Source of the DNA: an uncultured Acidimicrobiaceae bacterium
GTDB lineage: Bacteria; Actinomycetota; Acidimicrobiia; Acidimicrobiales; Salinilacustritrichaceae
DNA length: 32,000 nt
Assembly (NCBI GenBank): GCA_963731885.1
Contig: CAVSXR010000021.1
Coordinates: 22,067-54,066 of the forward strand
Direction: 5' to 3'
A model generated the notes under the pieces. It had not been told where the DNA came from. It was given only the letters and a program-made list of their open reading frames with translations, and did not search any database. Positions within the stretch are counted from its first letter, which is position 1. Every line of letters begins with the position of its first letter. A program made the position numbers and the translations under genes. Positions 357 through 22,177 of the stretch are shown piece by piece.

Positions 357-974
357 TCAGCGGAGCTTCTGGAAGAGGTCGTCGAGTGCTTCTCGCAGGA
401 GCGACGCCTCGGTTCGATTGAGGCGCCCTGCCATCTTGGAGAGTCGGTCGAGCGCGGCGCGTGAGTAGTAGTTGCTCTTGAGGACCATCTTCTCCTCGAC
501 GTAGATGGCGACGCGGCCCCCTCCCTCCCGCTTCCCGCGTGCAAGCGCCTCGTTGGCGCAGCGGAACAGCTCCGCGGTCTCGGTCGCGTGCGGTGGCCTG
601 GCTGCGACACCGAAGGTCGCGCTGATCGTCCAGTCGTCGACCGGGTGCTCGGCGAGGTGGGAGCGGACCTCTTCGAGGAGAATCAGTGCGTTCTCTGCCG
701 AGGCGTTCGGTAGCGCGACGGCGAACTCGTCGCCCCCGAGACGGCCGACGATCGCGTCACTCGGGAGCGATTGTGTGAGGGTCTCGATCCAGACCTCGAG
801 CACCCGATCGCCGGCATCGCGGCCCTTGGACTCGTTCAGCTCGCCGAAGCGGTCGAGGTCGGTGAGCGCAACGGCGACTGCCCCACCGCCGACGCGTTCG
901 TCGACTCGAGCGACGAGGTCGTCGATGTCGATGGTCTTCTCGTGGCCGTGCCAGTTCATCGTGATACTCATCAC
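357..974 (-). CDS. Stand-alone GGDEF-domain protein (putative diguanylate cyclase) fused to a C-terminal ribbon-helix-helix (CopG/Arc-like) module
   Basis: It carries DLDRFGELNESKGRDAGDRVL ... RLGGDEFAV ... FGVA ... ANEALARGKREGGGRV, the GGDEF domain signature. The last ~45 aa (KMVLKSNYYSRAALDRLSKMAGRLNRTEASLLREALDDLFQKL) have a beta-alpha-alpha RHH pattern. The start is GTG 974 or ATG 971. Confidence 0.8.
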   Translation of the reverse strand: MMSITMNWHGHEKTIDIDDLVARVDERVGGGAVAVALTDLDRFGELNESKGRDAGDRVLEVWIETLTQSLPSDAIVGRLGGDEFAVALPNASAENALILLEEVRSHLAEHPVDDWTISATFGVAARPPHATETAELFRCANEALARGKREGGGRVAIYVEEKMVLKSNYYSRAALDRLSKMAGRLNRTEASLLREALDDLFQKLR

Positions 975-4297: not shown

Positions 4298-5514
4298 GGG
4301 GTGTGGGTCCGTGCTCGTTGGCTGGAGATGAGGTGGATATCGCTGGTGAGGACGACGGCGACGACGGCGGCGAGGGTCGTGGTCGGGAGCAGGTGGAGGC
4401 CGGCCATCTCGGTCACGACGAGCGTGCTGCCGAGGGGGGTCTTGGTGACGCCGGTGTTGGCGGCGACCATGCAGGCGGCCATGAGCATGGTGGCATCGAC
4501 GCCGGGGAGCGCGTGGTGGAGGAGGAGCCCGCCTGCGGCACCGGCGAAGAAGAGCGGGATGATGAATCCACCGCGCCAGCCGGTGGACACGCAGACCGAG
4601 CTGGCGACCAGCTTGCAGACCACCGCGGCGACCAGCGCGGCAACGGTGACCCCGGGCGCGACGAGGTCAGTGATCTGGCCCTCGCCGAAGGTGAGTGCCG
4701 CGACCGACCACAGGCTGAGCAGGCCGACGACGAGGCCGCCGACCGCGGGTCGGAGCAGCGTGGGGAGATGGACGGCGGCCCGCCGGGTGGTGCGGACGAG
4801 GACGGTGAAGGCGATCGCGATGGCTGCGCCGGCGACGGCCGCGAGCGCGGCCCAGCCGAGATCGGTTGCTGATCCGACCGTGGCGTCAGGGAGGTCGAAG
4901 ACCGGTCCGAACCCGGCGCCGTCGAGACCGAGGTACACGACGAAGCCGATCAACGACCCGGCGAGGGCGGGCATCAGCGCCTCGTAGTACTCCAAGCCCC
5001 GCCGGTGAAGGATCTCGAGCGCGAAGATCGCGGACCCGAGGGGCGCGCCGAACAGGACGGTGAACGCGGCCGCCATGCCGGTGATGGTGAGGATGCGTAG
5101 CTGGTGAGCGTCGTGCGGGTCGGTCCGGTTCCCGATGGCCGTGCCGATGGTGCCCGCGGTCTGGACCAACGGCGCTTCCGGACCGAGCGCGCCACCCGCT
5201 GCGATGCCGAGCAGCGACACGGGGATGAGCGACCGCAACGCGCGCACGTCGCTGTGTCCGCCGCTGACGTGGATGTTGTCGACCAACAGTTCGACGTCGC
5301 CGGGATCACCGAGCATTCGGATGAGCCAAGCGATCGCGAATCCGGTGGCCACGAGGGTGGCGATCACGATCCGACTGCTGTGGCCGTCGGGTCCGATCAC
5401 CCGTCCGAGCGTTCGTAGCGCGGCCACGTAGGCGGCGCCGACCGCACCACCGGCGACACCCACGGCAATGACGCGGCCGGTGAGCGGCCGGAATACGGAT
5501 AGCTGGCGCAGCAC
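4294..5514 (-). CDS. ClC-family chloride channel / H+-Cl- antiporter
   Basis: Multi-TM protein with GGALGPEAPLVQ (GxEGP-type), GAPLGSAIFALE and GWRGGFIIPLFFAG (GxFxP-type) selectivity motifs. The start is set at GTG 5514 (VLRQLSVF..). The longer ORF to 5802 runs through a tRNA fragment and is rejected. Confidence 0.85.
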   Translation of the reverse strand: MLRQLSVFRPLTGRVIAVGVAGGAVGAAYVAALRTLGRVIGPDGHSSRIVIATLVATGFAIAWLIRMLGDPGDVELLVDNIHVSGGHSDVRALRSLIPVSLLGIAAGGALGPEAPLVQTAGTIGTAIGNRTDPHDAHQLRILTITGMAAAFTVLFGAPLGSAIFALEILHRRGLEYYEALMPALAGSLIGFVVYLGLDGAGFGPVFDLPDATVGSATDLGWAALAAVAGAAIAIAFTVLVRTTRRAAVHLPTLLRPAVGGLVVGLLSLWSVAALTFGEGQITDLVAPGVTVAALVAAVVCKLVASSVCVSTGWRGGFIIPLFFAGAAGGLLLHHALPGVDATMLMAACMVAANTGVTKTPLGSTLVVTEMAGLHLLPTTTLAAVVAVVLTSDIHLISSQRARTHTP

Positions 5515-5602
5515 GGATATATCGTAGAACGATCTAATCCGCTGACCCGAACCACGTCGACACGAGGACTTGCGGCGTGCGGGGTGTGCGCCTGCACCCC
5601 CA

Positions 5603-5647
5603 AGGTGGCGGGGGAAGGATTTGAACCTCCGACCTTCGGGTGATGAG
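5603..5647 (-). repeat. Decayed copy of the 3' 45 nt of tRNA-fMet (outermost att remnant, chromosomal-side junction)
   Basis: aggtggcgggggaaggatttgaacctccgaccttcgggtgatgag compared with tggtggcggggggaggatttgaacctccgaccttcgggttatgag at 22050-22094 shows 3 mismatches. It is followed by ttcgacg, as is the copy at 13765-13809. Confidence 0.8.
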
Positions 5648-5659
5648 TTCGACGTACCG

Positions 5660-5770
5660 CGGGTCGGCCCACCACCAGCCGAACAGCGCGTTGAGGCCAA
5701 GACCGACGAGGAGGATCGCGGACAGCCAGACGCACAACGTCGTCTCGGGTCGCGTCTGCGGCCACCGCCC
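5660..5770 (-). pseudogene. Short remnant of a cation-efflux (CDF-like) transporter gene at the island edge
   Basis: The minus frame reads ..[28 protein letters not shown] and then runs straight into the att/tRNA fragment. The LxGLxLNAxxGWWWADP pattern resembles the last TM of small actinobacterial 'cation transporter' proteins. There is no start and no complete domain. Confidence 0.35.
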
Positions 5771-5806
5771 GACTCCCGAGCTGCTCGCCCACACGTCGAC
5801 ATTGCA

Positions 5807-6040
5807 TCATCCGTCGGCCTCGCGCACCGATCGATTGAGCGCTTGGATGGCGCTGCCCTCCACCTCCTCCACGCCGGCCACGGCGAATCCGGTGTGGACC
5901 AGGACCCAGTCGCCTTCGCGGACCCGGCCCCCGTCGAGGACGATGGGAGCCAAGGACACGCGCCGGCGGCCGTCGGTCAGGTCGACGATCGCGTCGTCGC
6001 CATCGACGGCGACGACTCGGCCGGCATCGCTCAAGCACAC
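5807..6040 (-). CDS. hypC: HypC/HybG/HupF-family [NiFe]-hydrogenase assembly chaperone
   Basis: 77 aa starting (GTG)[10 protein letters not shown].., with the essential Cys at position 2, and ending ..EGDWVLVHTGFAV.. (HypC signature). The start overlaps the protease stop by 10 nt. Confidence 0.85.
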   Translation of the reverse strand: MCLSDAGRVVAVDGDDAIVDLTDGRRRVSLAPIVLDGGRVREGDWVLVHTGFAVAGVEEVEGSAIQALNRSVREADG

Positions 6041-6540
6041 GGAGAAGACCCCTCGAACAGACCGATCACCAGCACGACCGCGTCGGCGACTGCGGCCTCC
6101 ACCGCCGGGGTGAGCCCCGGACCGGCACCGAAGTCGACGCCCTCGACGCCGACGACCGTGAGCGTGTCCGGGAGCCGTCCCAGGCGCCCGCCGAGCGCGA
6201 TGGCGTCGGCGATTCCCATGGCGTGGCTCGCGCCGGTCCCGGCTGTGGCCGCGCCCGGATCGATCACGCGCACTGTTCCCGGGCGTGCGCCGGTGCGGAC
6301 GGCGTCGACGACGACGACGTGGTCGGCGCGGCCCCACGCATCGAGCAGGCGGGCGGGCTCGCCGTCGAGCAGGATCACGTGCGGTGCATTCTCCGACGAG
6401 CCCGTCGCCGCCTCGACGGCGCGGGCGACGACCCACCCGACGCCGTCGTCACGTCGGAACGAGTTGCCGACCCCGATGACGACGCGAACCGTGGACGCCG
6501 CGGCCGGGTCGGTTCGCCCGGCGTTGCGTCGTGTTGTCAT
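6031..6540 (-). CDS. [NiFe]-hydrogenase maturation endopeptidase (HyaD/HoxW/FrxA family)
   Basis: [18 protein letters not shown] ... LLDG ... VVVVDAV ... GASHAMG motifs. ATG 6540 overlaps the stop of the large-subunit ORF (ATGA). Confidence 0.85.
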
Positions 6541-8639
6541 CGCCGGTCCACGGTGAGGTCGAGGAAGTGCGTGGCACAAGAGATACAGGGGTCGTGGTTG
6601 CGGATGATCGACTCGGCACCGTGGGCGAGGTCGTGGTCGTCGAGATCGAGGTGGTCGGCGACGAATCGGGTGAGGTCGTCCTCGATGGCGGCCTGGTTCT
6701 GGGACGTCGGTGGAACGATCCGGGCATCGAGGATCGTCCCGTCGGCGTCGAGTTCGTAGCGGTGCCACAACGTGCCGCGGGGCGCTTCCGTCCACCCGCA
6801 TCCGACCCCAGCGACCGGCTCGACCGGCACCGCGGGCGCGTCGGGCTCCTCGTAGCGCGCGATGACGGCGAGCGCCTCCTCACACGCGTGCAGTACCTCG
6901 ACCGCACGGACGACGATGCTGCGGTACGGGTTGCGGTTCGAGTCGTCGAGGCCGACACGGACGGCGGCGGACCGGGCTCCTCGGGACAGCTCGCCGGCAT
7001 TGAGCGCGAATCGGGCCAGCGGACCGGTCAGGTGATGGCCGCGTCCGCGCAGGCCGCCGCGGAGCGCCGTCGAACGTTCGACGTGGTCCTCGACGAGTAC
7101 GTCGGCGAAGTCGGACTCGTCGAGGTCGAGGCCGCCCGACGTGACCAGTCGGCCACGGGTGATGGCGTACGCACCGGGATGTCGGAGGGCGGCCAGTTCC
7201 CAGTCGCCATCGAGGTCGGGGAAGTCGAACCCGGCCACCCAGTCGACGACGGCCTCGGCCCGATCGCGTGCGGCTTCGAGCTCGGGTACGAAAGCTCCCA
7301 ACTCACGAGCCTTCGGGGCGCGATGGAACCCGCCGACGCGGATGTTGACGGGATGGATGGCTCGCCCGCCGACGAGCTCGACGAGCGCATTGCCGGTCTT
7401 CTTCAGCGCGAGGCCCCGTTCGACCGCAGGTCGGTGATGCTCGGCCATGGCGATGGCGCTCTCGTAGCCAAGGAAGTCGGGGGCGTGGAGGAGGTGCACG
7501 TGCAGCGAGTGGCTCTCGATCCACTCACCGAAGTACAGCAGCCTGCGCAGATCGGCCAGCGGGCCGTCGACGGTGACACCACACGCAGCCTCGATCGCCG
7601 CACACGCGCTCATCTGGTACGCCACCGGACAGATGCCGCAGATCCGGGCGGTGATGTCGGGCGGTTCGACGTAGGACCGGCCGCGGAGGAAGGCCTCGAA
7701 GAAACGGGGCGGCTCGTAGATGCGGAGTTGGACGTCGTGCAGTTCGCCGTCGCGGATGTCGACGTGCAGCGCCCCCTCCCCCTCGACGCGGGCCAAGGCG
7801 CCGACCGCGAGGGTGCGCGATCCCGTGGCCTTGTGGGTCATCGCCGGCGCTCCCTCGCGTCGTCGAGCCGGTGCGCTCTCCTCGGCGAAGGCGGGTGCGG
7901 CGGCGTTGAAGGTCCGCAGGAGACGCACGATACCGGCGTCGTCCGCTCCGAGCCGGCCGAGTTCGACGGTGAGAGAAGCCGGGTTGGGGTCCTCGGCGGG
8001 CCCGAAACACCCGTAGCACCCACGGTTGTAGCTCGGGCACAGGGCGCCGCAGCCGGCGTGGGTGGCCGGCCCGAGACAGGGCGTGCCGTGAGCGACCATG
8101 ACACACACGTTGCCGGCGAGCTTGCAGTCGACGCAGACGGAGTGGGCCGGCACCTCGGGCCGTCGGCGGGCCAGGAACGCGCTGATCACCTCGACGAGTT
8201 GGCCCTTGTCGATGGGACAGCCGCGGAGCTCGAAATCGACGGGCACGTGGGCGGCGATCGCCGTGGAATCGGCGAGGGTCGAGATGTACTCCGGGTGGGC
8301 GTAGACGATGCTGAGGTACTCGTCGATGTCGGCGGCGTTGCGGAGGGCCTGGATGCCCCCGGCCGTGGCGCACGCGCCGATGGTCACCAGCGACCGGGAC
8401 GATGCCCGGACGCGCTGGATGCGCTCGGCATCCTCGGGTGTCGTGATCGACCCCTCGACCAGCGACAGGTCGTAGGGCCCGTCGAGGCTCGCACTCGTGG
8501 CCTCGAGGAAGTACGCGACCTCGACCTGGCCGGCGATGGCGAGCAGATCGTCCTCGCAGTCGAGCAACGTGAGCTGGCAGCCGTCGCACGACGCGAACTT
8601 CCACACCGCGAGCCGGGGCGGGCGACGGTCGGTCACCAC
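6537..8639 (-). CDS. [NiFe]-hydrogenase small (delta, FrhG/HydD-like) and large (alpha) subunits encoded as one continuous 700-codon frame
   Basis: The small-subunit part has [25 protein letters not shown] and [11 protein letters not shown]...[27 protein letters not shown]. The large-subunit part starts at MTHKATG (ATG 7841) and has [17 protein letters not shown] (L1) and DPCISCATH (L2). The ORF track shows no stop between the two parts. The start is GTG 8639/8636, overlapping the gamma stop (GTGA). Confidence 0.8.
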
Positions 8640-9475
8640 CGGCGCACCTCCAACAGCGGCTCGGCGACCGGCCAGGGGAGCACCGGTCCATCGGTGCACA
8701 CGAACATCGGTCCGAGCTGGCAGCGCCCGCAGTGGCCGATGGCGCAGTGCATGTTGCGCTCGAGCGACACCGTCACGTGTTGAGGCGCAACGCCTCGGTC
8801 GATCAGGGCCCGGGCGACGACGCGCATCATCACCTCGGGCCCGCACAACAGCGCCCTCGTGCTGGCGGGATCGTCGACCAGGCGAACCGTCGGCGCGGTG
8901 ACCGTACCGACCTCGCCACGCCAGTCGTGGCTCGGCGCGTCCACGGTGACGGCGACGGTGGCACCGGCGTCGGTCCAGTCGTCGATCTCGTCGCGGTACA
9001 GCAGGCCGTCGGGCCGGCGGGCGCCGATGACGACCGACAATCGTCGGGCCGTTCGTGCGGGTGCCAAGGCCCGACGGACGACGGGGCGGAGGGGTGCGAG
9101 CCCGATACCTCCGGCGACCACCAGGAGATCCTCGGGCTCCTCGATCGGCCAGCCCGTGCCGAACGGCCCTCGGACGCCGACCTGATCACCGACATCGAGA
9201 CGGCAGAGCTCTCGCGTGACGGCACCGACACCGCTGATCGTGTGTCGCAGGACGCCGTCGTCGGACGGGCAGCCGCTGACCGAGATCGGCGCCTCGCCGA
9301 CCCCGAAGGCGTACAGCATCGTGAACTGGCCGGGTTCGATCGAGGCCACCGCGCCGACGGGCTCGACGTCGATCGTGACGACATCGTCGGTCTCCCGCTC
9401 GACGCGCACGACGCGATGGCTCACCGGCGCCATCGGGTGCGTCGCGGGCGGGCTCGCCACGTCGGGTTCAGCCAC
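8633..9475 (-). CDS. Hydrogenase gamma subunit (HydG/AsrB/PyrK-like FAD/NAD(P)-binding oxidoreductase with C-terminal 2Fe-2S)
   Basis: [34 protein letters not shown] (FAD beta-barrel), [16 protein letters not shown] (NAD(P) Rossmann), LLCGPEVMM, and [12 protein letters not shown]...C (2Fe-2S). The start is GTG 9475 (8-nt overlap with the upstream stop) or ATG 9433. Confidence 0.8.
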
Positions 9476-9929
9476 GGCCGTAGAGGTCGAGCAGTCGGAG
9501 GTGGGTGGCGTCGATCTCGGCGACCAGTACCGACGCCACGCGCTGCATGATCCGGTAGCCGAACGCCGGATCGGCGTCGGCCTTGTCACGAAAGCAGCCG
9601 GTCTCGATGGTCAGCAACCGGGAGCGCCCGACCGCACGCACGTCGCTGGTCCAGCGGTACGGCGGGAAGATCCACGCCCAGCCGACCGCGCCGCCGGGAC
9701 CGACGGTGTCGACGACCAGCGACTGGCCGGCCGAGTGCAGTTCGATGGCGAGCAGGCCGTGGCGGACCAGGAAGAACCGGTCGGCGGCGTCGCCTTCGCG
9801 GGCCAGCACCTCGCCCGGCCGCACGACCTGGTTGTGGCCGCATCCGGACATGAGGTCGAGATCCGTGGCGTCGAGCGTGGAGAACACGTCGTGGGCTTCC
9901 AGCAGCTCGCGGATCGGCTTGAGTCGCAT
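9468..9929 (-). CDS. Stand-alone cyclic-nucleotide-binding (CAP/Crp effector-type) domain protein, 153 aa
   Basis: LLEAHDVFSTLDATDLDLMSGCGHNQVVRPGEVLAREGDAADRFFLVRHGLLAIEL....VVDTVGPGGAVGWAWI is the cNMP-binding beta-barrel pattern. There is no HTH or other output domain. ATG 9929 overlaps the beta-subunit stop (ATGA). Confidence 0.75.
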   Translation of the reverse strand: MRLKPIRELLEAHDVFSTLDATDLDLMSGCGHNQVVRPGEVLAREGDAADRFFLVRHGLLAIELHSAGQSLVVDTVGPGGAVGWAWIFPPYRWTSDVRAVGRSRLLTIETGCFRDKADADPAFGYRIMQRVASVLVAEIDATHLRLLDLYGRG

Positions 9930-11074
9930 CAGGTCGGCTCCGTCCCGGCGATGGCGCGTACCTCGGCGGTGAGGTCGATGCGGGCCGGGCACCAGGTCAC
10001 GCAGCGCCCGCAGCCCACACAGCCCGACATGTCGAACTGATCCCACCACGTCGAGAGCTTGTGGGTGAGCCACTGGCGGTAGCGGGACCTCGTATCGGCC
10101 CGAACCGGGCCGACCCCGTGCAGCCACGAGTGGTCCTGAGAGAAGCACGAATCCCATCGTCGGGCCCGCTCGGCCTGTGTACCGTCGAGCGACGTGTGGT
10201 CCTCGACGGCCGAGCAGAAGCACGTCGGGCACACCAAGGTGCAGTTCGAACACGACAGGCACCGGGTGGCCACGTCGTCCCACTGGGGGTGGTCGAGGTT
10301 GGCGGCGAGAACGTGGCGCGCCGCCACGGGATCGAGCATGCGGGTCATGCGGCCCCGAGCTCGTTCGGTCACCGCGCGGGCTGCGGCGATGTCGCCATCC
10401 CGGGCCGGTTCGATGGGGAGCTCGGCGAGCACCTCGGCACCGAGCGGCGTGCCCACCTCGAGGAGGAGCCGATGGCGTTCCTCGTCGAGCAGTTCCGTGA
10501 TCGCGAGGTCGAACCCGGCCCCGGCATGGGCGCCGACATCGGGGCCGGTGCCCATCGAGGAGCAGAAGCAGGTCGCCGCAGGATCGGAGCAGTTGACGGC
10601 GACGACGAAGTTGTCCTGGCGTCGTGCCTTGTAGCCGGGGTCGGGCACCGTGCCGTCGCGTAGCACGCGGTCCTGAACGGCGATGGCGGCCAGGTCGCAT
10701 CCCCGGAGACCGATGAAGGCGCGGCGGAGGCCCTCGGGTTCGCTGGGCGTGACCGTCATCGCGGTGTCGTCGCGTGTCGCTCGAGTGATCGTGACCAGCG
10801 TCTCGCGGCGGGGCGTGAGGAAGCCACGGGCCGAGTCAGGCCCGACGGCGTAGCCGAACAGCGCATCGTCATCGCGTCGTTCGAGCCGGTACTCGCCCGC
10901 CTCCTGGATGTCGGTCCAGCCGATGGGCAGGTCGCGGCGGCCGGCGATCTCGTCGAGAACGATCGCACCGTCACGGATGGTGGGGCCCACGACGACATAG
11001 CCGCGCGACGTCAGTGACGCGATCAGCGCGTCGATCGAGACGGGGTCGATGAGGGCCCGATCGACGGTGGTCAC
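9929..11074 (-). CDS. Hydrogenase beta subunit (HydB/AsrA-like 4Fe-4S protein)
   Basis: CLSCSNCTLVCPTCFC and CVGCGRCVTWCP ferredoxin-type motifs, plus NCSDPAATCFCSSMG. The start is GTG 11074, preceded by GGAGG at 6 nt and overlapping the upstream stop (GTGA). The Arg-rich 278-aa N-terminal extension of the track ORF is rejected. Confidence 0.8.
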   Translation of the reverse strand: MTTVDRALIDPVSIDALIASLTSRGYVVVGPTIRDGAIVLDEIAGRRDLPIGWTDIQEAGEYRLERRDDDALFGYAVGPDSARGFLTPRRETLVTITRATRDDTAMTVTPSEPEGLRRAFIGLRGCDLAAIAVQDRVLRDGTVPDPGYKARRQDNFVVAVNCSDPAATCFCSSMGTGPDVGAHAGAGFDLAITELLDEERHRLLLEVGTPLGAEVLAELPIEPARDGDIAAARAVTERARGRMTRMLDPVAARHVLAANLDHPQWDDVATRCLSCSNCTLVCPTCFCSAVEDHTSLDGTQAERARRWDSCFSQDHSWLHGVGPVRADTRSRYRQWLTHKLSTWWDQFDMSGCVGCGRCVTWCPARIDLTAEVRAIAGTEPT

Positions 11075-11901
11075 GATGCGCCTCCCTGCGCGACCCCGGG
11101 TTCGAGCTGGTCGGCGAGCGGTGTGCGTCGCTCGGCCGGTCGGCCGTCGGCGGCCAGGCTCCGGTTGGCGAGGGCGAGCTGGGCGTCGGTCTCGCTCCGG
11201 AGCCGACGGGCCTGCGTCAGGGACAGGCGTTGACACGCCCAGCCCCAGTGGCAGGCCACCAGGTCGCCGGGCTCGAGCCCAGCGACCAGGGAGTAGCCGT
11301 CGGTCGCCGTCGTCACGGTCTCCGACAGCGGCGGTCCGAGACCGAGTCGCCGCCCGTCCCAGGTCAGGCGGCGGCTCTCGACGACGGCGCCGGTCACGGC
11401 CACGTCGACGACGCGTCCCCAGCGGACGCGACACCGGTCGAGGACGTCGAGGGCGACCGCGGTCGACCGGCTCCGCAGGAGGCCGACCCATGGGTAGACG
11501 CTGAACACGTGGAAGTTGTGGTGGGGACGCGGCGCGGCCTCGACGACACCGGCCAGGCCCGACCACCGCGTGCCGGTGCGGGGCCGGAAGCGCTCGTCGA
11601 GCGAGTCGCCGAGTTGGCGCGGACCGACGCTGGCGAGCAGCGGGCTCCCGATCCAGTAGGCCTCGACCACCCGGGCGTCGAGCGGGTCGGCGATCCCGTT
11701 TGCGCCGGCGATCACCTCCAGGTACGGCCACGCCCCCTCGAATCCTCGGGCCAGGGCGCGCAGGCCGCCGTCGTCGGGGCCGCCGGCGACGGCGCGCTCG
11801 AGCAGTTCCCGGTGCGCGCCCGGCCCGCAGTACCCGAGCTCGTTGGGCGGGTACGCGAATCGAGCGAACGCCACGCCCCCGGCGCCGGTGAGGTCGGTCA
11901 T
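11071..11901 (-). CDS. Conserved-looking protein of unknown function, translationally coupled within the hydrogenase operon
   Basis: 276 aa starting MTDLTGAGGVAFARFAYPPNELGYCGP, with ...HHNFHVFSVYPW... and a C-terminus of ..LEPGDLVACHWGWACQRL. Both the start and the stop overlap neighbouring genes (ATGA / GTGA). I recognise no confident family. Confidence 0.6.
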   Translation of the reverse strand: MTDLTGAGGVAFARFAYPPNELGYCGPGAHRELLERAVAGGPDDGGLRALARGFEGAWPYLEVIAGANGIADPLDARVVEAYWIGSPLLASVGPRQLGDSLDERFRPRTGTRWSGLAGVVEAAPRPHHNFHVFSVYPWVGLLRSRSTAVALDVLDRCRVRWGRVVDVAVTGAVVESRRLTWDGRRLGLGPPLSETVTTATDGYSLVAGLEPGDLVACHWGWACQRLSLTQARRLRSETDAQLALANRSLAADGRPAERRTPLADQLEPGVAQGGAS

Positions 11902-12863
11902 GCCCCAACCGCGACGCGCCGCGGCGGCCGGCCGACGACCACGAGGGTGCCGACGCCGGTCAGGACCAGGACCACACCGGCGGGATCGGGCATCGAGGCA
12001 CCGGCGAACGACCGGTTCAGCACGGCGGTGACGATCGCTCCGAGCACGAGCATCGCAGTCACGTCGACCGCCGGTGCCCGAGCGAGTGCGGCGTACCACG
12101 TCGTCACGTACCCGAAGAGCAGCCCTCCGACGAGCGCGGCCCACGCCCACGCTCCCGCGTCGAGACGGACGAGGGTGTCGAACTCGCCGCGCACGACGGC
12201 CCAGCCGACGAGCACGGCGACGCCGCCCACCATGCGCGCCGTCCCGACAGTGATGGGGGACACGGTGGCGAGGAGGCGCTTGGCGACCGTCACCTCGACC
12301 GACCACAGCAGGGTCGCGACCAGCACCATGGCCTCGCCGACCCCGGGCGCGATCGAGCCCGCACCGCCCGCGAGGAACGCCTGGCCGCCGACGAGGAGTC
12401 CGACGGCGACGGCCTGGAGCGGGCCGATCCGCTCGCGGAGGAACACGGCCGCGAGGATCGCGACCCAGACGACGAGGGTCTTGTGCACGAACGCAGCATC
12501 GGTGGACCCCGCCCTCGCCAGGCCCTCGAAGAACAGGACGAAGGGCACGCTGCCCCCCACCACGGCGACCAAGGCGAGCGCCAACCACCGTCGAGGCGTC
12601 AGTGCCGCCGACGCCCCCGAAGAAGAAGACCGAGCGCCGGCGACAGCAGCGGTCGCGAGCAGCAGCACCGCGGCGACCAGGTTCTTCGCCGTCGTGTAGG
12701 TGGTCGCGTCCGGGAACCGGGCGACGCCGAGCCCGTTGACGTACACGGCGACGCCGGACACGCACGCGGTCACGAACGCCAGCGCGAGGCCGGACCTCCG
12801 ATCGCCCGCATCACGTTCGCCCTGCGTGCCCCCGGTCGCCATTGTCGCAATCACGTCGACCAT
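11898..12863 (-). CDS. EamA/DMT-superfamily transporter (10-TM type), first gene of the hydrogenase operon
   Basis: It has two repeated hydrophobic halves (..TTAKNLVAAVLLL.., ..HKTLVVWVAILAAVFLRERI.., ..ARMVGGVAVLVGW.., ..LVLGAIVTAVL..). The stop overlaps the next ATG (ATGA). An alternative start is ATG 12842. Confidence 0.7.
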   Translation of the reverse strand: MVDVIATMATGGTQGERDAGDRRSGLALAFVTACVSGVAVYVNGLGVARFPDATTYTTAKNLVAAVLLLATAAVAGARSSSSGASAALTPRRWLALALVAVVGGSVPFVLFFEGLARAGSTDAAFVHKTLVVWVAILAAVFLRERIGPLQAVAVGLLVGGQAFLAGGAGSIAPGVGEAMVLVATLLWSVEVTVAKRLLATVSPITVGTARMVGGVAVLVGWAVVRGEFDTLVRLDAGAWAWAALVGGLLFGYVTTWYAALARAPAVDVTAMLVLGAIVTAVLNRSFAGASMPDPAGVVLVLTGVGTLVVVGRPPRRVAVGA

Positions 12864-12989
12864 CGTCGCGCAGGCGCCCGATCACCGGGGCGCCGACCAG
12901 ACCGAATCCCGTCCAGTCCGTGACACGGCACGTCCTCTGTGATCGGCGAGGCACGTCGATGTGGCGCGCCGCTCGACCGAACACGGCCC

Positions 12990-13699
12990 GAGGGCTCGAA
13001 GCAGCGGCACCTCCAGAAGACCGAAAGCATCTCGCTCACCGAGGACGAGTTGCGCCAGCTGATGCGGACTACGGCCGGACACCGATTGTTCCCGCTGTAC
13101 TGGCCGACGGCCATGACCGGGATGCGCCCGCAACGAGGTGCTCGGGCTGAAGTGGCCCGACGTCGACTTCCGGAAGAAGCAGCTGCATCTCAACCGTGGG
13201 CTGGTCGCCGTCGGCTACGAAGTCCACGAGACACGAGGCAAGACCAAGACGGCCCGGCGCTGCATCGACCTCGACGACACCACCCTCACCGTCCTCGAAG
13301 GATGGCGGGCGCTCCAAGCCGCCGAGTTCGCCGCCGTCGGCATCGACAACGACGAGGAGTGGATGTTCACCCACGGCGACGGCAACCCCATCCACCCCCA
13401 CGCGCTGTACCAGACCTTCAAGCGGATCGTCGCCAACGCCGACGTGCCGACGCTCCGGTTCCGGGACCTGCGGCACACCCACGGGAGCCTGCTCATCAAG
13501 GACGGCGTGCCGGTCAAGGTCGTGTCAGAGCGGCTCGGCCACGCCCACATTCGCCCACACCATCCAGACCTACCAGCACCTCCTGCCCGGCATGGGAGCG
13601 GACGCCGCCTCACGCTTCGAACGCCTCACCGGGTCCGTTCCCACGGACGATTCCGACTCGGAGGAACACCGTGGGAACAACCGGAGGAACACCGCCTGA
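12990..13699 (+). pseudogene. Tyrosine integrase pseudogene (5'-truncated, two +1 frameshifts), paralogue of the integrase at 20795-21985
   Basis: Three successive frames together align to residues ~170-396 of the intact integrase: KQRHLQK..LRQL..AGHRLFPL..AMTGMR | LGLKWPDVDF..LNRGLVAVGYEVHETRGKTKTARR..HDLRHTHGSLLIKDG..ERLGHA | ..QTYQHLLPGM. Single-base insertions lie near 13125 and 13555. The N-terminal ~170 codons are absent. Confidence 0.85.
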
Positions 13700-13714
13700 C
13701 CCCGGAGGAACACC
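13659..13714 (+). repeat. Three direct copies of cggaggaacacc (candidate integrase arm-type sites)
   Basis: Exact 12-mers lie at 13659-13670, 13682-13693 and 13703-13714, with 23 and 21 nt start-to-start spacing. The third lies beyond the integrase-frame stop (13697-13699). A degenerate triplet with 23/20-nt spacing lies at the same place next to the intact integrase (about 21945-21999). Confidence 0.4.
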
Positions 13715-13725
13715 TCAGCAACGAC

Positions 13726-13754
13726 GAAGGCCCAGGTCGCTGACCTGGGCCTTC
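13726..13754. terminator. Perfect 13-bp-stem hairpin between the integrase remnant and the tRNA fragment
   Basis: gaaggcccaggtc-gct-gacctgggccttc, identical to 22011-22039. Confidence 0.5.
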
Positions 13755-13764
13755 ACTCACAAGT

Positions 13765-13809
13765 TGGTGGCGGGGGGAGGATTTGAACCTCCGACCTTCG
13801 GGTTATGAG
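13765..13809 (-). repeat. Perfect copy of the 3' 45 nt of tRNA-fMet (CCA end to anticodon loop), an internal att junction
   Basis: It is identical to 22050-22094. The identity extends to a 90-bp perfect direct repeat, 13720-13809 = 22005-22094. It diverges after ttatgag (ttcgacgg here versus cccgacga in the tRNA). Confidence 0.9.
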
Positions 13810-14570
13810 TTCGACGGCCGGTCTGTCGGCCCGTCCTCTTCCGTGTCGTCCAGTACCTCTGAGCTGGGGTTTCGCGGATCCGACGTACCTTCTTGTACCC
13901 CGGCGTCACCCCCTGTGGCAACCGATCCGTTAGAAGATCCGTTAGAAGAATCGGCGACCACACCAGGACCGTGACACGAAGGATCTGCCGTCCCGATCGC
14001 GTCAAGGGTCTGGCCCAAGATCTTGGCGCCCTGGCGGTCTCGCATATCGTCCTCCTCGATGCGCTCCCGCGCCTCAGACACGTCAAAGAGTCGACGGTCG
14101 AGGCACTGGCGCACGATCCTCGCCAGCTCCTCCTTCTCGGTGTCCACTGCGATGTCGATCACCGTGCGCAGCGCTGTCGTACACGGGATGCCGTCCACGA
14201 CCGTCGTGTCCTTCTCGGGAATGTCCTTGTAGTGGACGATCACCTCTTGGTCACCAACACGCCGGACCTCGCCCAGGTCACCATCAGCGTCGATGAAGAC
14301 GTCGTCGAGAGTCTCGTCCTCGTCGAACTCGCAGCCACATGACAGCATCTGCCCACCGCACGTGGCACAGCGCTGAACATCGCACCCGAGGTGGTGGAAT
14401 CCGCCAGGAGCGACTCCACAATCGCCGCAACGCTCACGGGATGAGCTCCAACGTGGGAACTCCTTCCCCCACGGAATCATCGGGATGCTCACCCCGTCGC
14501 GGTGCATCGCATCCACGCAGCACGACGACGCGATGGTCATCTCTCGCTCACACCAACGGCACACAGCCAT
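13803..14570 (-). CDS. Cys-rich (zinc-ribbon-like) N-terminal domain protein with an AbiEi-like/DUF559-N-like middle region
   Basis: Start chosen at ATG 14570 ([11 protein letters not shown]..). The first 80 aa contain 11 Cys (CxxC, CGDC, CATCGG, CGC). The middle region has ..[16 protein letters not shown].., resembling the 'G-[IV]-P-x-T-x-x-x-R-T-x-x-D-x-A' motif. The low-complexity C-terminus reads into the att repeat (stop 13803-13805). Confidence 0.55.
13812..13865. repeat. Island-arm sequence, copy 1 (repeated at 15593-15650)
   Basis: cgacggccggtctgtcggcccgtcctcttccgtgtcgtccagtacctctgagc compared with cgacgcggtctgctgtcggccacgtcctctcccgtgtcagtccagtacctctcggagc gives roughly 85% identity with small indels. 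Confidence 0.7.
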
Positions 14571-14776
14571 GACCTTCCCCTTCGATCTGTGGCATCGAAC
14601 CCAGCGGTCCGTCACCAACACGGGCCGGAAGCCCGAATCATTGGGGGAAGCAGCGAGCCGCTCTCGGCGAGCGGGAAGGACCTGCGATTTGCGAGGTCGT
14701 CGAAGGATAATCCAGCTCGACCGTGACCGCGACGACGTCGAAAGCGAGCGGCGAAAGACTGCCAGTTCAAACATAA

Positions 14777-14794
14777 ATGGAAGGATCCTTCCAT
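14777..14794. promoter_or_regulatory. 18-bp perfect palindrome in a divergent intergenic region (candidate operator)
   Basis: ATGGAAGGATCCTTCCAT lies in a locally AT-rich stretch. It is 31 nt upstream of GTG 14825 of the wHTH-nucleotidyltransferase gene and about 200 nt upstream of the divergent gene start (14570). Confidence 0.45.
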
Positions 14795-14824
14795 ATTTGC
14801 TTGCTGATCCAGTAGCTTGACGAC

Positions 14825-15442
14825 GTGGACTTCGTCCGACCGATCGAGGCCATCGTGCCAGGCGCCCAGGGCCGGGTCCTGGCCGTCCTGGCCGAGACCA
14901 CCGCCGACCTGAACCTGCGGACCGTCGCCCAGCTCGCCGGGATCAGTCAGGCCCAAGCATCCCGTTTGCTGCCCGAGCTCGTGACACTCGGCGTTGTCGA
15001 GCGGCGTGAGGTACCACCGGCATCGCTGTTCCGGCTCGTGCCCGAGCACATTGCTTCCCGGGTACTGCTCGCCCTTGCCCGCTCGACCGACACCGTGCTC
15101 CACGAGATGGGCCGCCTGGCAGGCGCGCTCCTCCACCCGCCGGTGAGCGCAATCGTCTTCGGATCGTTCGCCCGCCGGGAGGCGGGCGCCGACAGCGACA
15201 TCGACGTCATGGTTGTCCGACCCGCAGGCGTCGACGAGGACGAGTGGTCTGCGTCGCTCGAAGTCTGGCGCCGCGACACACAGCGGCTCACCGGCAATCC
15301 GGTCGAGGTGCTCGAGGTGGGCGCCGATGAGGCAGCGGGGAAGCTCAGAAGCCGCTCCCCGGTGTGGGCCGACATCCGCCGTGACGGTCGTGTGGTGTAC
15401 GGGCTCGGCCTCGATGAGCTCCGGGGAGTGCCCAGTGCCTAG
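14825..15442 (+). CDS. wHTH-fused minimal nucleotidyltransferase (MNT-type antitoxin of a HEPN/MNT pair)
   Basis: The N-terminus ([46 protein letters not shown]) is MarR/ArsR-like wHTH. It is followed by the [22 protein letters not shown] NTase GS-x10-DxD motif. Confidence 0.8.
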
Positions 15443-15612
15443 GCCCGGTCGCACCAAGCCGGTGTCCGCTGCGCAGGTCCGGGCGTACGCAGCCAAGGCC
15501 GAGGAGTTCGCCGTGGCCGCGACCAGCGATCTCGACGCCGGACGCAACATCGCCGCCACGACCCTCGCCATCCACGCCGGCATCAACTCAGCCGACGCGG
15601 TCTGCTGTCGGC
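15435..15612 (+). pseudogene. HEPN-domain toxin gene truncated after ~56 codons
   Basis: GTG 15435 overlaps the MNT stop. It reads ..AAQVRAYAAKAEEFAVAATSDLDAGRNIAATTLAIHAGINSADAVC, matching HEPN helices 1-2. The frame then becomes low-complexity exactly where the arm repeat (15593-15650) begins. No Rx4-6H motif is present. Confidence 0.6.
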
Positions 15613-15650
15613 CACGTCCTCTCCCGTGTCAGTCCAGTACCTCTCGGAGC
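15593..15650. repeat. Island-arm sequence, copy 2 (homologous to 13812-13865)
   Basis: See copy 1. Here it is not preceded by a tRNA fragment; it abuts the truncated HEPN gene. Confidence 0.7.
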
Positions 15651-15891
15651 CGCGGACGACGGTCGTCGGCCTCGGCGAGCGTCAGCTCTATCCGTTCCGG
15701 CAGCCGGACGTACGGCTCGTCAGACGACACATGCGGACGGAAGCTGGACGCCAGAGAGCCAGATCCTTGGCGTCGTTACGCGGATCGCCCGCATGACAAC
15801 GATTTGCGGGCGCCTGCAGCGGGGTGGGTGTCGGTTGCGACCGTGGCCGTCCGCTCCACCACGGGTCAGAGGTCGACGCCGTCCACCTAAC

Positions 15892-16410
15892 GTGGCGGAG
15901 GTGAGCGAACAGGAACGACGTGACTTCGTGGCACCACGGTCGAGCGGAGAGTCCAACGGCATCGACCGTGCGTCTCTCGACCCGGCGGACCCAGACGAAC
16001 GGCGGATCCTCATCCTCGCCGAACACCCCGATCTCGCAGCAGCTATCGACGCCGGGCGTTCAGAGATCCACATCGACGGCCAGACGATGAGCCCGGCGAT
16101 GCACATCTCGATGCACGAGATCGTCGCGAATCAGCTCTGGGATGAGGATCCACCTGAGGTATGGGAAACCGCGCGGCGGTTGATCGGTGCCGGCTATGAC
16201 CGACACGAGATCCTGCACATGCTCGCGTCCGTGGCCAGCGCCGGCGTGTACGCGGCGCTCGTCGAGGCTCGACCGCATGATCTCGACAAGACCCGAGCTG
16301 CTCTCAAAGCTCTGCCGGAGTCGTGGGAACGCGAGCGAGCCGAGATCCCCGAGCAGCGTCACATGAACCGAGCCGAGCGTCGGGCTGCCCAGCGAAGGAA
16401 GCGTCACTGA
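15892..16410 (+). CDS. DUF1841-like protein
   Basis: ..HPDLAAAIDAGRSEIHIDGQTMSPAMHISMHEIVANQLWDEDPPEVWETARRLIGAGYDRHEILHMLASV.. resembles the DUF1841 pattern (NP-x-LH...H..i..Q....P.....t..rL...G...He..H). The start is uncertain (GTG 15892 or 15901). Confidence 0.55.
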   Translation: MAEVSEQERRDFVAPRSSGESNGIDRASLDPADPDERRILILAEHPDLAAAIDAGRSEIHIDGQTMSPAMHISMHEIVANQLWDEDPPEVWETARRLIGAGYDRHEILHMLASVASAGVYAALVEARPHDLDKTRAALKALPESWERERAEIPEQRHMNRAERRAAQRRKRH

Positions 16411-16581
16411 GCTCTGGGGCTTACCGCGTCCGCCGGCCCACCCGCGGCCGGCGCGCCGCCACCGCTCGGGGATCATGCGGCGCGTCTGGTATCTGGGAGC
16501 CGCCCATCTCGGCGGCACCAACTGTCGGCTTTGGCCCGCCCAACGGCAACGGTGCGCTGCCCATTCCTTCTTCGGTCTCGT

Positions 16582-16911
16582 TCAGGCCGCGGTGTCCTTG
16601 CCGAGGTGGATGGGCACGCTTCGTCCTTCGTCCTCGAATACGGCGACGAGTTCGAGACGGGCACCGAGCGCTTCGAGGTACTGGCGCAGTGTCGAGACAC
16701 GGACGTCCTCGGAGTGCTCGAGCTTCGAGATCGCACCCTGGGTGACCTCCAACCGTCCTGCGAGTTCGGCCTGGCTCACGGCCTCGGCGTGGCGGAGCTC
16801 CCACAGTCGGATCTCCTCGAGGGTCTCGGCCCGCTTGGTGGCCAGTCGCTCGGCCGCTCCGGGGCGGGCGTCGACGTCCTTGCGGAGTTCGGAGAACCTG
16901 GTTCGTCCCAT
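16582..16911 (-). CDS. higA: XRE-family HTH antitoxin (HigA-like)
   Basis: WELRHAEAVSQAELAGRLEVTQGAISKLEHSEDVRVSTLRQYLEALGARLELV is an XRE HTH. The ATG shares one base with the upstream toxin stop (TGATG). Confidence 0.75.
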   Translation of the reverse strand: MGRTRFSELRKDVDARPGAAERLATKRAETLEEIRLWELRHAEAVSQAELAGRLEVTQGAISKLEHSEDVRVSTLRQYLEALGARLELVAVFEDEGRSVPIHLGKDTAA

Positions 16912-17267
16912 CAGATCAGTCCTTCATCCTTCAGTTCCTCGAGGTAGTCGTCGTAGAGGTCGTCGGCGAGAGGAACCGCCCAGAGGTACCAGTCGTTCCA
17001 CGCTCCGCTCTTGTCGCCACCGAGCAGCAGGATCACCTGTCGGCGAGGGTCGAACATGAACAGCACCCGCAACGCGCCTTCCTTCGCGGCCCGCAGTTCC
17101 TTCATGTTGTGGTGACGTGAGGCCTGTATCCGATCGACCACGGGCCGACCGAGATCCGGTCCCCGATCGGCGAGCAGGTCGACGCGATCGGTCACAGATT
17201 CCTGCTGATCGGCGGAAAGGTTCTGCCACCACTCCGCGAACTGATCGGTGACCTCGACCTGCCACAC
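16911..17267 (-). CDS. higB: RelE/ParE-superfamily toxin (HigB / Gp49-like 'addiction module killer')
   Basis: 118 aa with ..FAEWWQNLSADQQESVTDRVDLLADRGPDLGRPVVDRIQASRHHNMKELRAAKEGALRVLFMFDPRRQVILLLGGDKSG.. . The toxin-first gene order is typical of HigBA. Confidence 0.75.
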   Translation of the reverse strand: MWQVEVTDQFAEWWQNLSADQQESVTDRVDLLADRGPDLGRPVVDRIQASRHHNMKELRAAKEGALRVLFMFDPRRQVILLLGGDKSGAWNDWYLWAVPLADDLYDDYLEELKDEGLI

Positions 17268-17276
17268 CAGCCCAGT

Positions 17277-18305
17277 ATGAGGCTATTGCTCATGATGAGT
17301 CAAGACTCATGTCCGCTAGAGTCAGTCGCCGTGGCTGATGCGATCGACGAGTTGGTCGAGCGAGTGACGGTCGACGCGTATGGCGACTACGAACAGCTGT
17401 CCGCGTTCTGGCAGTGGTTCGGAGACGAGGCCCGGTTCCCGTTCACTGCGACCGTGGTCGGTGCCGAGGTGGAGGTCATGGGCGTGGACTTCCCCGGCGA
17501 CGAGCGCCGCGGTCTGGTCGCCAACTGCCGGAGAGACGGCGAAGATCATCTCGTGTCGTTGGTCGACGTCGTCCCGACCGGCCCGATGCCGGTGTTGACG
17601 CGACAGCTGGTGGATGCCTACCGACGATGGTCGGGCGTCGCCCCACTGCCCGGCCCGCGACGGAGTGCCGGCAGCGGGTGGCGGTACCGAAGCCTGTCGT
17701 CGGTGGACATCGAGGTGCCCGAGCCGCTGGACCTGCACGAGCGAGGCGTATGGGACCCGGCCGAGGAGTACTGGGGCGAACCGGGTGACGAGCTGCATCC
17801 GCTGTGGCAGGAGGTGATCGACGCCGGCCCACGACCAGCCTTCGAAATGGACCAGATCATCCCCGGCGTCGCCGCCGACGACTGGGACAGCGACCCGATC
17901 GTCGATGCCGCCGAGTTGCATCGGGCCGGTGAGCATCGCCGGGCTCGCGACCTGCTCGAGGGTCTGCTCGCACAGGATCCACGCTGTGTCGATGCTTGGG
18001 GGCATCTCGGGCTGATCGCGTTCGACGCCCGGGGTCCGGGCCCGGCCCGCGGTTTCTACGAGAGCGGGATCGCGGTCGCCGAGGCGTCGCTGCCCGATGG
18101 CTTCGGGGGCGTGCTGGGGTGGGGATGGATCGACAACCGTCCCTTCCTGCGCTGTCTCCACGGTCTCGGACTGTGCGCATGGCGCCAGCGCGCCTGGGAT
18201 GAGGCCGACGCCGCGTTCGTCGCCCGTATATGGCTCGACCCTGGGTCGAGCGGATCGCTCGCGTGTCTCGAACAGGTCCGCCACCGGAACCGGTGGAGCC
18301 GCTGA
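17277..18305 (+). CDS. Two-domain hypothetical protein (N-terminal 'DAYGxxEQ' small beta domain, C-terminal TPR-like helical domain)
   Basis: The N-terminus has VTVDAYGDYEQLSAFWQWFGDEARFPFTATVVGAEVEVMGVDF..GLVANCRRDGEDHLVSLVDV. The C-terminus has ..DPRCVDAWGHLG...GFGGVLGWGWIDNRPFLRCLHGLGLCAWRQRAWDEA..WLDP.. . The true start is uncertain (ATG 17277/17292 or GTG 17331). Confidence 0.6.
   Translation: MRLLLMMSQDSCPLESVAVADAIDELVERVTVDAYGDYEQLSAFWQWFGDEARFPFTATVVGAEVEVMGVDFPGDERRGLVANCRRDGEDHLVSLVDVVPTGPMPVLTRQLVDAYRRWSGVAPLPGPRRSAGSGWRYRSLSSVDIEVPEPLDLHERGVWDPAEEYWGEPGDELHPLWQEVIDAGPRPAFEMDQIIPGVAADDWDSDPIVDAAELHRAGEHRRARDLLEGLLAQDPRCVDAWGHLGLIAFDARGPGPARGFYESGIAVAEASLPDGFGGVLGWGWIDNRPFLRCLHGLGLCAWRQRAWDEADAAFVARIWLDPGSSGSLACLEQVRHRNRWSR
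17295..17310. promoter_or_regulatory. Inverted repeat ATGAGTC-AA-GACTCAT in the higBA / plus-strand-operon divergent control region
   Basis: It is a perfect 7+2+7 inverted repeat in the AT-richest patch of the island, about 30 nt from the higB start codon (17267). Confidence 0.4.
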
Positions 18306-18838
18306 TGACCAACAATGCCCGGCGGTCGCCGATCTTCGGGGCCGAGCCGTGGACGACGGCCGCGGGGGTCGAGTGGTCTCACTTCGACTGCTGGTTCGCG
18401 CTCGTGATCACGACCGACTTCGACGGCGATCCCGACGCGCTCCGCACCCAGCTCGAGACCACACTCCGTTCGTCATTGCACCGACGCGACGACACGCGGG
18501 CCAAGTTGAGCCACCTTGCCGACCTTCGCGCCCGTCTCGACGCGGTGGGGCTGGACTTCGAGGATCTGGCCGAGGTCGAGGAGCCGGACAAGCGGGTGTT
18601 GAGCAAGGCGCGTCGCAAGGTCCTCGAACAAGCGCTCGAGGGTCGGGCGATGACCGAGGCCATGCGCAACACCCCAGCCCACCGTCTCGAACAACGAGCC
18701 CGGTACGGGTACTGGGAGAAGTTCCCGACCAACCCCGACCGCTTCTACGAACGCCTCACCGGCCGACGGAACGACACCTTCGACCCCAAGGGCCGTTCGT
18801 TCGACATGACTCGCCGTCTACGGGACCGACTCGACTAG
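18305..18838 (+). CDS. Hypothetical protein (177 aa), translationally coupled to the preceding gene
   Basis: ATG 18305 shares one base with the upstream TGA. No domain is recognised. It ends at TAG 18836-18838, and the same frame continues open into the next ORF. Confidence 0.5.
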   Translation: MTNNARRSPIFGAEPWTTAAGVEWSHFDCWFALVITTDFDGDPDALRTQLETTLRSSLHRRDDTRAKLSHLADLRARLDAVGLDFEDLAEVEEPDKRVLSKARRKVLEQALEGRAMTEAMRNTPAHRLEQRARYGYWEKFPTNPDRFYERLTGRRNDTFDPKGRSFDMTRRLRDRLD

Positions 18839-18898
18839 CTCGACGGCCCCCGCCGCACGCTGCCCGACCGTCTCGCTCTGTACCGGGCGTTCCACACC

Positions 18899-19231: not shown

Positions 19232-19318
19232 TGCCACCAGCTCACCGGTGTGACCCTCGGCGACCCTGAAGGGGCGCACCCACCTGCCACCCACTGAGCA
19301 TTCGACGACCGTTTCGGG

Positions 19319-20182: not shown

Positions 20183-20186
20183 CGAT

Positions 20187-20627: not shown

Positions 20628-20794
20628 CGCTGCCGATGGACGCGAGCTTCCCCCGAGTCCGTGTCGCTGCGAGCGCCCGCTCCAACCTGGGCTTTCGCGT
20701 CTCTGCATCCGAGCAGGCAGCCGCGTAAGGAGTCGTCTACCGATTGTTCCCCCGGGTTCCGAACGTCGGGACCCGAACTCGGAGGAGGAACAAC

Positions 20795-21985: not shown

Positions 21986-22010
21986 ACCGGGGGAGCGCCC
22001 TGTGAACGAC

Positions 22011-22039: not shown

Positions 22040-22049
22040 ACTCACAAGT

Positions 22050-22126
<77 letters not shown>

Positions 22127-22177
22127 GCGGATTGATGAATGTACCGCCGGCCCCGCGGGACTGACAACCTCGCCGGC

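Follow-up and report, generated by a model that had tools for sequence, protein, structure and literature searches.

To our knowledge, all characterised [NiFe]-hydrogenases need HypC, HypD, HypE and HypF for their Fe(CN)2CO centre. Our literature search on group 3b enzymes without Hyp genes found only descriptions from Frankia, in which the hyp-less 3b synton is "never the only hydrogenase synton" (PMC11879354), and from Rhodococcus equi. The 3b cluster of R. equi 103S contains a gene for a cyclic nucleotide monophosphate (cNMP)-binding protein and a HyaD-type protease, as in the Hyh clusters of Mycobacterium smegmatis, and the authors report homology between its remaining proteins and the 3b subunits of M. 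smegmatis (PMC13332983). Here, we analyse a 32,000-nucleotide stretch of contig CAVSXR010000021.1 from an uncultured Acidimicrobiaceae bacterium (the window, within which positions are numbered), containing a group-3b-type operon in a small island near an initiator tRNA gene. We consider it likely that positions 5604-13809 form the older of two tandem islands, holding a laterally gained 3b operon whose enzyme is probably matured by the island's own genes. The overall layout is att, hydrogenase operon, dead integrase, att, a second island (island 1), live integrase and tRNA (Table 1).

The genome holding the window (G000), from the order Acidimicrobiales, comprises 4.35 Mb in 54 contigs, with a GC content of 70.6%, a completeness of 88.96% and a contamination of 4%, and was compared with 41 relatives (labelled in the style G001). 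Gene identities were assigned by Pfam and NCBIfam profile searches and the tRNA by ARAGORN. The large-subunit phylogeny is a maximum-likelihood tree of 69 sequences, with an approximately unbiased (AU) test on a constrained topology, and loci with DUF6390, a family encoded in the operon, were surveyed as the best 80 of 537 in one-genome-per-species contigs.

A preliminary description of this DNA had assigned the operon to group 3b, and our searches agree, since the best NCBIfam and PDB matches of the alpha, beta, gamma and delta subunits are all Pyrococcus or Thermococcus sulfhydrogenases. The large (alpha) subunit scores 245.6 bits against ShyA and 208.6 bits against HydA over the full length, compared with 130 for VhuA and 122.5 for FrhA, and the top NCBIfam scores of beta, gamma and delta likewise go to Pyrococcus sulfhydrogenase models. 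Among PDB entries, the alpha subunit of sulfhydrogenase I (SHI) from Pyrococcus furiosus (9nez) scores 205 bits, with residues 13-428 matching 9-426, followed by the Thermococcus kodakarensis cytosolic hydrogenase (5yxy, 194), Mvh (150), the NAD-reducing hydrogenase SH (140) and Frh (124). The heterotetramer gene set is complete, with an AsrA-like beta, an AsrB-like gamma, and delta and alpha subunits that are fused to one another. The active-site motifs RICGIC and DPCISCATH are present, the latter followed by a nine-residue C-terminal extension (FLDLTVDRR), and the four Ni-Fe ligand cysteines (L1 RxCGxC, L2 DPCxxC) are retained in all 69 large subunits of the tree. The class assignment, taken from NCBIfam profile and PDB scores only, supports a predicted cytosolic NAD(P)-linked group-3b (Hyh/sulfhydrogenase-type) [NiFe]-hydrogenase. 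Its closest large subunit among 5.8 billion proteins is 87% identical and lies on a 3.7-kb contig.

Eight minus-strand open reading frames (ORFs), all intact, run from 12863 down to 5807 and overlap at each of their seven junctions, by ATGA at 11898-11901 and 6537-6540, by GTGA at 11071-11074 and 8633-8636, by GTGGCTGA at 9468-9475 between the cNMP-binding and gamma genes, and by GTGTGCTTGA at 6031-6040 between the HycI and HypC genes. The remaining junction, at 9927-9931, reads TGATG and overlaps by 1 nt. An overlap at every junction had been described before, and six of them are as given there; the ATGA placed at 9929-9931 is actually this TGATG. The gene coordinates also stand, and the earlier product list left out three of the eight genes. 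A promoter and terminator scan of 5300-13900 returned none above the shuffled expectation. The operon is headed by the EamA-DUF6390 pair, coupled to the beta gene by GTGA, and this order (EamA-DUF6390-beta) was not found in any of ~160 other loci examined, in which the pair lies downstream of HypC, or is divergent or convergent. Actinobacterial 3b clusters are known to have a cNMP-binding gene placed between beta and gamma; here, the protein is translationally coupled, its beta/gamma position is kept in nearly all related clusters, and it may be a regulatory subunit.

Table 1 Features of the operon, the two islands and the tRNA-fMet site, by position in the window.
Feature	Positions	Strand	Remarks
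EamA/DMT permease, first gene of the operon	11898-12863	-	Pfam, NCBIfam
DUF6390: N-terminal helical domain, then HypC-like OB (oligonucleotide/oligosaccharide-binding) barrel and helix (155-250)	11071-11901	-	Pfam, fold searches
Beta subunit, AsrA/HydB-like, Fer4_22 dicluster; best match sulfhydrogenase HydB, then AsrA	9929-11074	-	Pfam, NCBIfam
cNMP-binding domain protein, stand-alone, 154 aa	9468-9929	-	Pfam
Gamma subunit, AsrB/HydG-like, FAD/NAD(P) and 2Fe-2S (NAD_binding_1 and DHODB Fe-S)	8633-9475	-	Pfam, NCBIfam
Small-large [NiFe] fusion, 699 aa (Oxidored_q6 and NiFeSe_Hases)	6537-8636	-	Delta 7845-8636, alpha 6537-7844
HycI/HyaD-type maturation endopeptidase	6031-6540	-	Pfam, NCBIfam
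HypC chaperone, 77 aa, Cys2 and conserved His retained; sole HypC of the genome	5807-6040	-	Pfam, NCBIfam
Tyrosine-integrase pseudogene	12999-13696	+	Residues 182-413 only, first 181 codons lost
Distal att copy, outer end of the hydrogenase island	5604-5647		2 mismatches
Middle att copy, border between both islands	13765-13809		Identical to tRNA 3' part
att copy inside tRNA gene	22050-22094		
Island 1, younger tandem island	13810-22049		GC 66.7%; intact integrase 20744-21985
tRNA-Met(CAT), initiator type, attB target	22050-22126	-	ARAGORN; only tRNA found by it

Initiator tRNAs are marked by a mismatched 1:72 pair and by three G-C pairs in their anticodon stem, and the tRNA-Met(CAT) of the window has both. 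The 45-nt 3' part of this tRNA-fMet gene is found in three copies within the window, and the 23 nt past the att core are similar too (5648-5670 against 13810-13832), a resemblance that the arms of two related elements should show. The intact integrase of island 1 ends 65 nt from the tRNA, and the integrase remnant ends equally far from the middle att copy. This remnant is 57-79% identical to the intact integrase and has two frameshifts, with pieces at 12999-13127, 13120-13551 and 13550-13696; truncated and split over three frames, it is a true pseudogene. The hydrogenase island (8.2 kb) holds the operon alone as its cargo besides the remnant, and the operon lies exactly between the distal and middle att copies, confirming the earlier placement of the operon between att repeats beside an integrase pseudogene. 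Neither this arrangement of att copies and integrases nor the series of overlapping genes is a chance pattern. The hydrogenase island would be the older of the two, because a newcomer integrates into the intact tRNA.

Relatives show further occupancy of the same site. Island 1 is found at the same tRNA-fMet gene in G015 (contig C13, locus L116, 10601-16558) with 98.7% nucleotide identity, and its integrase is 99.8% identical across all 413 residues, against just 78-94% for the core flanks, which indicates recent movement between species. Other att-bounded inserts of ~4.5 kb are present at tRNA-fMet in G009 (locus L117, 10488-14889) and G001 (L118, 11702-16307), and the insert in G014 (L119, 14717-16145) carries a different integrase, with 35% identity. 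The tRNA-fMet gene is thus an integration hot spot in this genus. Related integrases were found beside none of the other hydrogenase loci examined, 90 in genomes and 80 in metagenomes.

The UPF0182 core protein and the 3b large subunit give different pictures of relatedness to G000, with identities of 97% and 64%, respectively, in G008, 94% and 64% in G015, 76% and 73% in G001, and 76% and 70% in G012; in G009, UPF0182 is 87% identical and the 3b large subunit was not found. In the large-subunit tree, G000 is sister to G001 (support 100) within a four-member clade that also contains G012 and one Acidimicrobiia metagenome-assembled genome (MAG; support 99), and the large subunits of G008 and G015 are placed apart, with a Rhabdothermincola MAG. 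Constraining G000, G008 and G015 to one clade lowers the log-likelihood by 89.7 units (AU p 0.0006); this grouping follows core-protein similarity but was named with the tree already known. G008, G015 and G009 share a collinear right flank of the tRNA-fMet gene (22139-31992) and have the tRNA in the corresponding position, and all three lack the hydrogenase island at this site. The 3b clusters of the relatives lie on other contigs, with other neighbours.

Horizontal acquisition on a tRNA-targeting element had been proposed for the operon from the outset, together with a comparison of its large-subunit phylogeny with relatedness and of its codon usage and GC3 with core genes. The absence of the island from the nearest species, the conflict between the large-subunit tree and core-protein similarity, and the AU test all support this proposal. 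The compositional comparison showed nothing foreign, as the hydrogenase island has a GC content of 71.1% against 70.6% for the genome, and the GC3 of the operon is 0.85-0.90 against 0.873 +/- 0.055. Island 1 is clearly lower in GC (Table 1) and in GC3 (0.71-0.81). Foreign origin by base composition, tried for both islands, is therefore negative for the hydrogenase island and positive for island 1 only. The best reading of these data is that the operon moved among Acidimicrobiia lineages, and not recently.

The operon had been expected to rely on maturation genes elsewhere in the genome; a genome-wide search did not find them. Profiles for HypA, HypB, HypD, HypE and HypF gave nothing above cut-off in G000, and control genomes were positive. 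A tblastn search with ORFs from the hyp regions of G001 and G015, two genomes of the same genus, gave no match. In G000, the operon's HypC and large-subunit genes are the only ones of their kind, and HycI is also present. Contig C10 of G015 (236000-255168) aligns collinearly with contig C34 of G000 (76558-95840), with 85-88% nucleotide identity, and the collinear alignment starts again at C34:95880. A ~14.5-kb G015 segment (C10:255168-269692), which contains a second hydrogenase along with hypD, hypE and hypF, is cleanly absent at C34:95840-95880, and the position of this gap within an intact 215-kb syntenic contig shows that the absence of the hyp segment is not due to an assembly gap. Of the HypCDEF set on which characterised [NiFe] enzymes depend for maturation, only HypC was found in this ~89%-complete genome, and HypD is also absent from most genomes with this operon variant, isolates included.

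A candidate for part of the missing function is DUF6390, for which we found no paper mentioning the name and whose closest metagenome copy is 64% identical. An alignment of 69 DUF6390 sequences contains five invariant residues (C25, H128, C157, H218 and C223). The AlphaFold model (predicted local distance difference test 87, predicted template-modelling score 0.86) consists of a helical domain (residues 1-~150) and a barrel with a helix (155-250). HypC 2z1c is the top match of this model both in Foldseek (E 6.5e-3, probability 1.0) and in VIA-align (Z 6.4, root-mean-square deviation 1.9 A, 71/71 residues), with Escherichia coli HypC at Z 5.2. At the sequence level, the DUF6390 profile matches only HypC in the PDB (E 0.44-0.47), save for an unrelated epoxide hydrolase (E 1.1), the Pfam HupF_HypC profile (PF01455) matches DUF6390 at E 0.05 and 14.1 bits, below its cut-off of 28.5, and hhalign of DUF6390 against a HypC alignment gives a probability of 92.4% (E 5e-7). 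Aligned by eye, C157 in DRC-RIRWGRVV stands opposite the cysteine of HypC in MC-LAIPGKVV. The N-terminal domain folded alone gave no convincing fold match (best VIA Z 4.5, Foldseek E >5). The HypC-like fold and these alignments suggest that DUF6390 is probably an iron-handling maturation factor.

Nearly all well-flanked loci among the best 80 of 537 contain genes for beta, cNMP-binding, gamma, small and large subunits, HycI, HypC, EamA and DUF6390, and this nine-gene cluster is kept together in 54 loci. The taxa represented include Acidimicrobiia, Nocardioides, Intrasporangiaceae, Cellulomonas, Demequinaceae, Nakamurella, Gaiellaceae and some Chloroflexota. Looking within +/-10 kb for neighbours that might replace HypD, HypE or HypF, we saw no gene recur besides the nine of the cluster. 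Of 50 further DUF6390 genomes, 4 have HypD, which was not found in the other 46. In four cultured strains (Fodinibacter luteus, Nocardioides aquiterrae, Pedococcus cremeus and P. bigeumensis) and the closed chromosome of a Demequinaceae MAG, HypD was found in 0/5, HypF was not found either, and each has a single large-subunit gene. Overall, HypD is lacking in 54 of 58 other DUF6390 genomes tested, the four cultured strains included. Within the module, the pair of HypC and DUF6390 holds together most tightly. In a few genomes (loci L051, L053, L107 and L034), this pair occurs without adjoining 3b structural genes, and L107 has two tandem DUF6390 copies. One MAG contig labelled as Proteobacteria (L104) has a large subunit almost identical to that of a Cellulomonadaceae MAG (L098) and is probably mis-binned.

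Among the 41 relatives, all 3b-positive genomes without DUF6390 (G001, G005, G008, G023, G024 and G027) have HypD, and of the 3b genomes with DUF6390, HypD is absent in G000, G012 and G033 and present in G015, beside its second hydrogenase. Genomes with and without HypD are intermixed on the large-subunit tree, where the sister of G000, G001, has the opposite state; this rules out that the DUF6390-linked enzymes form one clade. With a closely similar enzyme in G001, which has hypDEF and no DUF6390, and with the hyp segment of G015 missing in G000, the helper sets look interchangeable. The linkage of HypC, DUF6390 and EamA and their distribution, complementary to that of HypD, HypE and HypF, suggest that the former three may stand in for the latter.

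These data fit the following sequence of events. The cargo would be one coupled 3b operon in the actinobacterial layout with an accessory trio of HypC, EamA permease and DUF6390, and the island carrying it would have been acquired by lateral transfer from a different Acidimicrobiia lineage. A related element would later have entered the re-formed tRNA gene, displacing the first island outward, and the first integrase would then have decayed, fixing the operon in place. One added base before the (A/G)TGA overlap would have fused the small to the large subunit in frame. As HypA, HypB, HypD, HypE and HypF were not found in G000, and most genomes with EamA-DUF6390 are alike in this, the enzyme is probably matured by the island's own cargo, in which HypC and the HypC-like DUF6390 would handle the iron unit, EamA would transport a required metal or ligand precursor, and HycI would trim the large subunit. 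In its strongest form, which we put forward tentatively, the island would be a self-sufficient transferable kit, with HypC, DUF6390 and EamA replacing HypD, HypE and HypF in a Hyp-less host.

Several points weigh against this account of the island and its enzyme. The genome-like composition of the hydrogenase island means that the transfer is old or that the donor was similar, and the nearest large subunits come from the same genus (G001, G012), pointing to transfer among close rather than distant lineages. To the left of the island, CLC and MarR genes are kept in the genus and nothing further is collinear in any relative, so that no two-sided empty site was recovered, and an intact sibling of the hydrogenase island was not found elsewhere. 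The fusion rests on a single base and is possibly an assembly error. With a genome 89% complete and 4% contaminated, the Hyp absence falls short of proof, and we know of no biochemical pathway that supplies the CN and CO ligands when HypE and HypF are lacking. The host-like composition, the same-genus large subunits and the non-collinear left flank would also suit an operon that is native and vertically inherited, with the att copies and the integrase remnant derived from elements inserted on either side. We regard such an origin as very improbable, because the operon fills the whole space between two att copies, the remnant borders its att copy in exactly the way that the intact integrase borders the tRNA, the nearest species lack the operon at their tRNA locus and carry another 3b lineage at a different place, and the AU test rejects common descent with them. 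For maturation of the usual kind, hypABDEF would have to lie in the ~11% of the genome that was not assembled or binned, perhaps on a plasmid or a further island. The completeness of a 54-contig assembly leaves room for this, G039 seemed HypD-less and yet has HypF fragments on tiny contigs, and the sister-lineage enzymes of G001, G008 and G015 coexist with hypDEF. However, five separate Hyp families would all have to be missing, the hyp regions of the same genus gave no tblastn match, a 215-kb contig shows the site of the G015 segment intact and unoccupied, and the same operon form occurs without HypD and HypF in the four cultured strains and the closed MAG chromosome, as well as without detectable HypD in 46 of the 50 further genomes; we therefore judge this explanation quite unlikely.

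The fusion of the small and large subunits bears on two further explanations. In all 11 relatives inspected, the small-subunit stop and the large-subunit start overlap by (A/G)TGA, with the two genes in different frames. At this point, G001 reads CCGCCG-TGACC and G000 reads CCGGCGATGACC, with one additional base, at about 7842-7846 of the window. Because of this base before (A/G)TGA, the reading frame of the entire small subunit continues through the large subunit. At the large-subunit start, the ATG, now internal, and a GGGAG ahead of it are still present, and judging from these signals the large subunit could also be translated separately. The uniform 4-nt overlap in the 11 relatives, the difference of a single added base and the fact that the fused protein of G000 is known from one sequence on one contig are all consistent with a one-base insertion error of sequencing or assembly, in which case the true genes would overlap by (A/G)TGA. 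This has to be taken seriously but is doubtful in our view, as the added base lies outside any homopolymer and at least one further clean small-large fusion exists (P0003, 702 aa). Most other "fused" database entries have garbled linkers resembling frameshift read-throughs, and together with the lost stop, the integrase that is already a pseudogene and the lack of detected Hyp genes, they could also indicate a stranded relic, that is, an operon left immature in a Hyp-less host and starting to decay, with the fusion as its first lesion. Against such decay, all eight ORFs are intact and still coupled, the small-subunit sequence is whole and in frame with the internal ATG and GGGAG remaining, the active-site motifs are intact, the host-like GC3 suggests long residence without decay, and intact clusters occur in the Hyp-less state in more than 50 genomes, making a relic unlikely. 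A laterally gained operon, probably matured by the island's cargo, thus remains our preferred explanation.

What is new here is the carriage of the HypC-EamA-DUF6390 module on a minimal mobile island, together with the contrasts between sister genomes. The island represents a minimal unit of natural origin, brought into a genome without Hyp machinery, and, if our interpretation is true, defines a small, cloneable gene set for probing Hyp-independent hydrogenase maturation. A self-sufficient kit would imply an undescribed way of making or acquiring Fe(CN)2CO, or a different set of active-site ligands, and surveys of hydrogenase capacity based on hyp genes would then miss many Actinomycetota.

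Two further genes of the window lie outside the hydrogenase island. Within island 1, the gene at 14825-15442 encodes a protein that joins a winged-helix (IclR/MarR-like) domain to a nucleotidyltransferase domain of the MNT/Pol-beta type, a combination that resembles toxin-antitoxin or defence modules. A short GGDEF-domain protein is encoded at the left end of the window (357-974).

Compared with known hydrogenases, the enzyme of G000 resembles P. furiosus sulfhydrogenases I and II (HydBGDA, ShyBCDA) and the T. kodakarensis enzyme in its four-subunit make-up and end-to-end matches, although its alpha subunit scores only ~205-246 bits, far under the equivalog cut-offs of the archaeal 3b references. 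A cNMP-binding gene and a protease are shared with the Hyh clusters of R. equi and M. smegmatis; unlike these and the archaeal clusters, the operon of G000 has fused small and large subunits and includes EamA and DUF6390. Unlike in Frankia, the hyp-less 3b operon stands in a genome in which no Hyp machinery was found. Compared with typical tRNA-targeting islands, the hydrogenase island is very small (8.2 kb), with a one-operon cargo and no compositional signature; it nevertheless resembles tandem islands of this kind in its direct repeats, which correspond to the tRNA 3' part, in the integrase next to the tRNA-proximal att copy, in the distal position of the older, decayed element and in the varying occupancy of the site among relatives. 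DUF6390 differs from HypC in that its invariant cysteine is internal (C157) rather than residue 2 at a free N-terminus, in being joined to a 150-residue helical domain and in co-occurring with a separate, true HypC. Its rear domain, however, is like that of the HypC/HybG/HupF family (PF01455; 2z1c, 3vyr, 2ot2), with an OB barrel and a C-terminal helix, a cysteine and a histidine that align with the HypC Cys2 and His51 positions, and, as for HypC, HybG and HupF, an occurrence that is always in a hydrogenase context.

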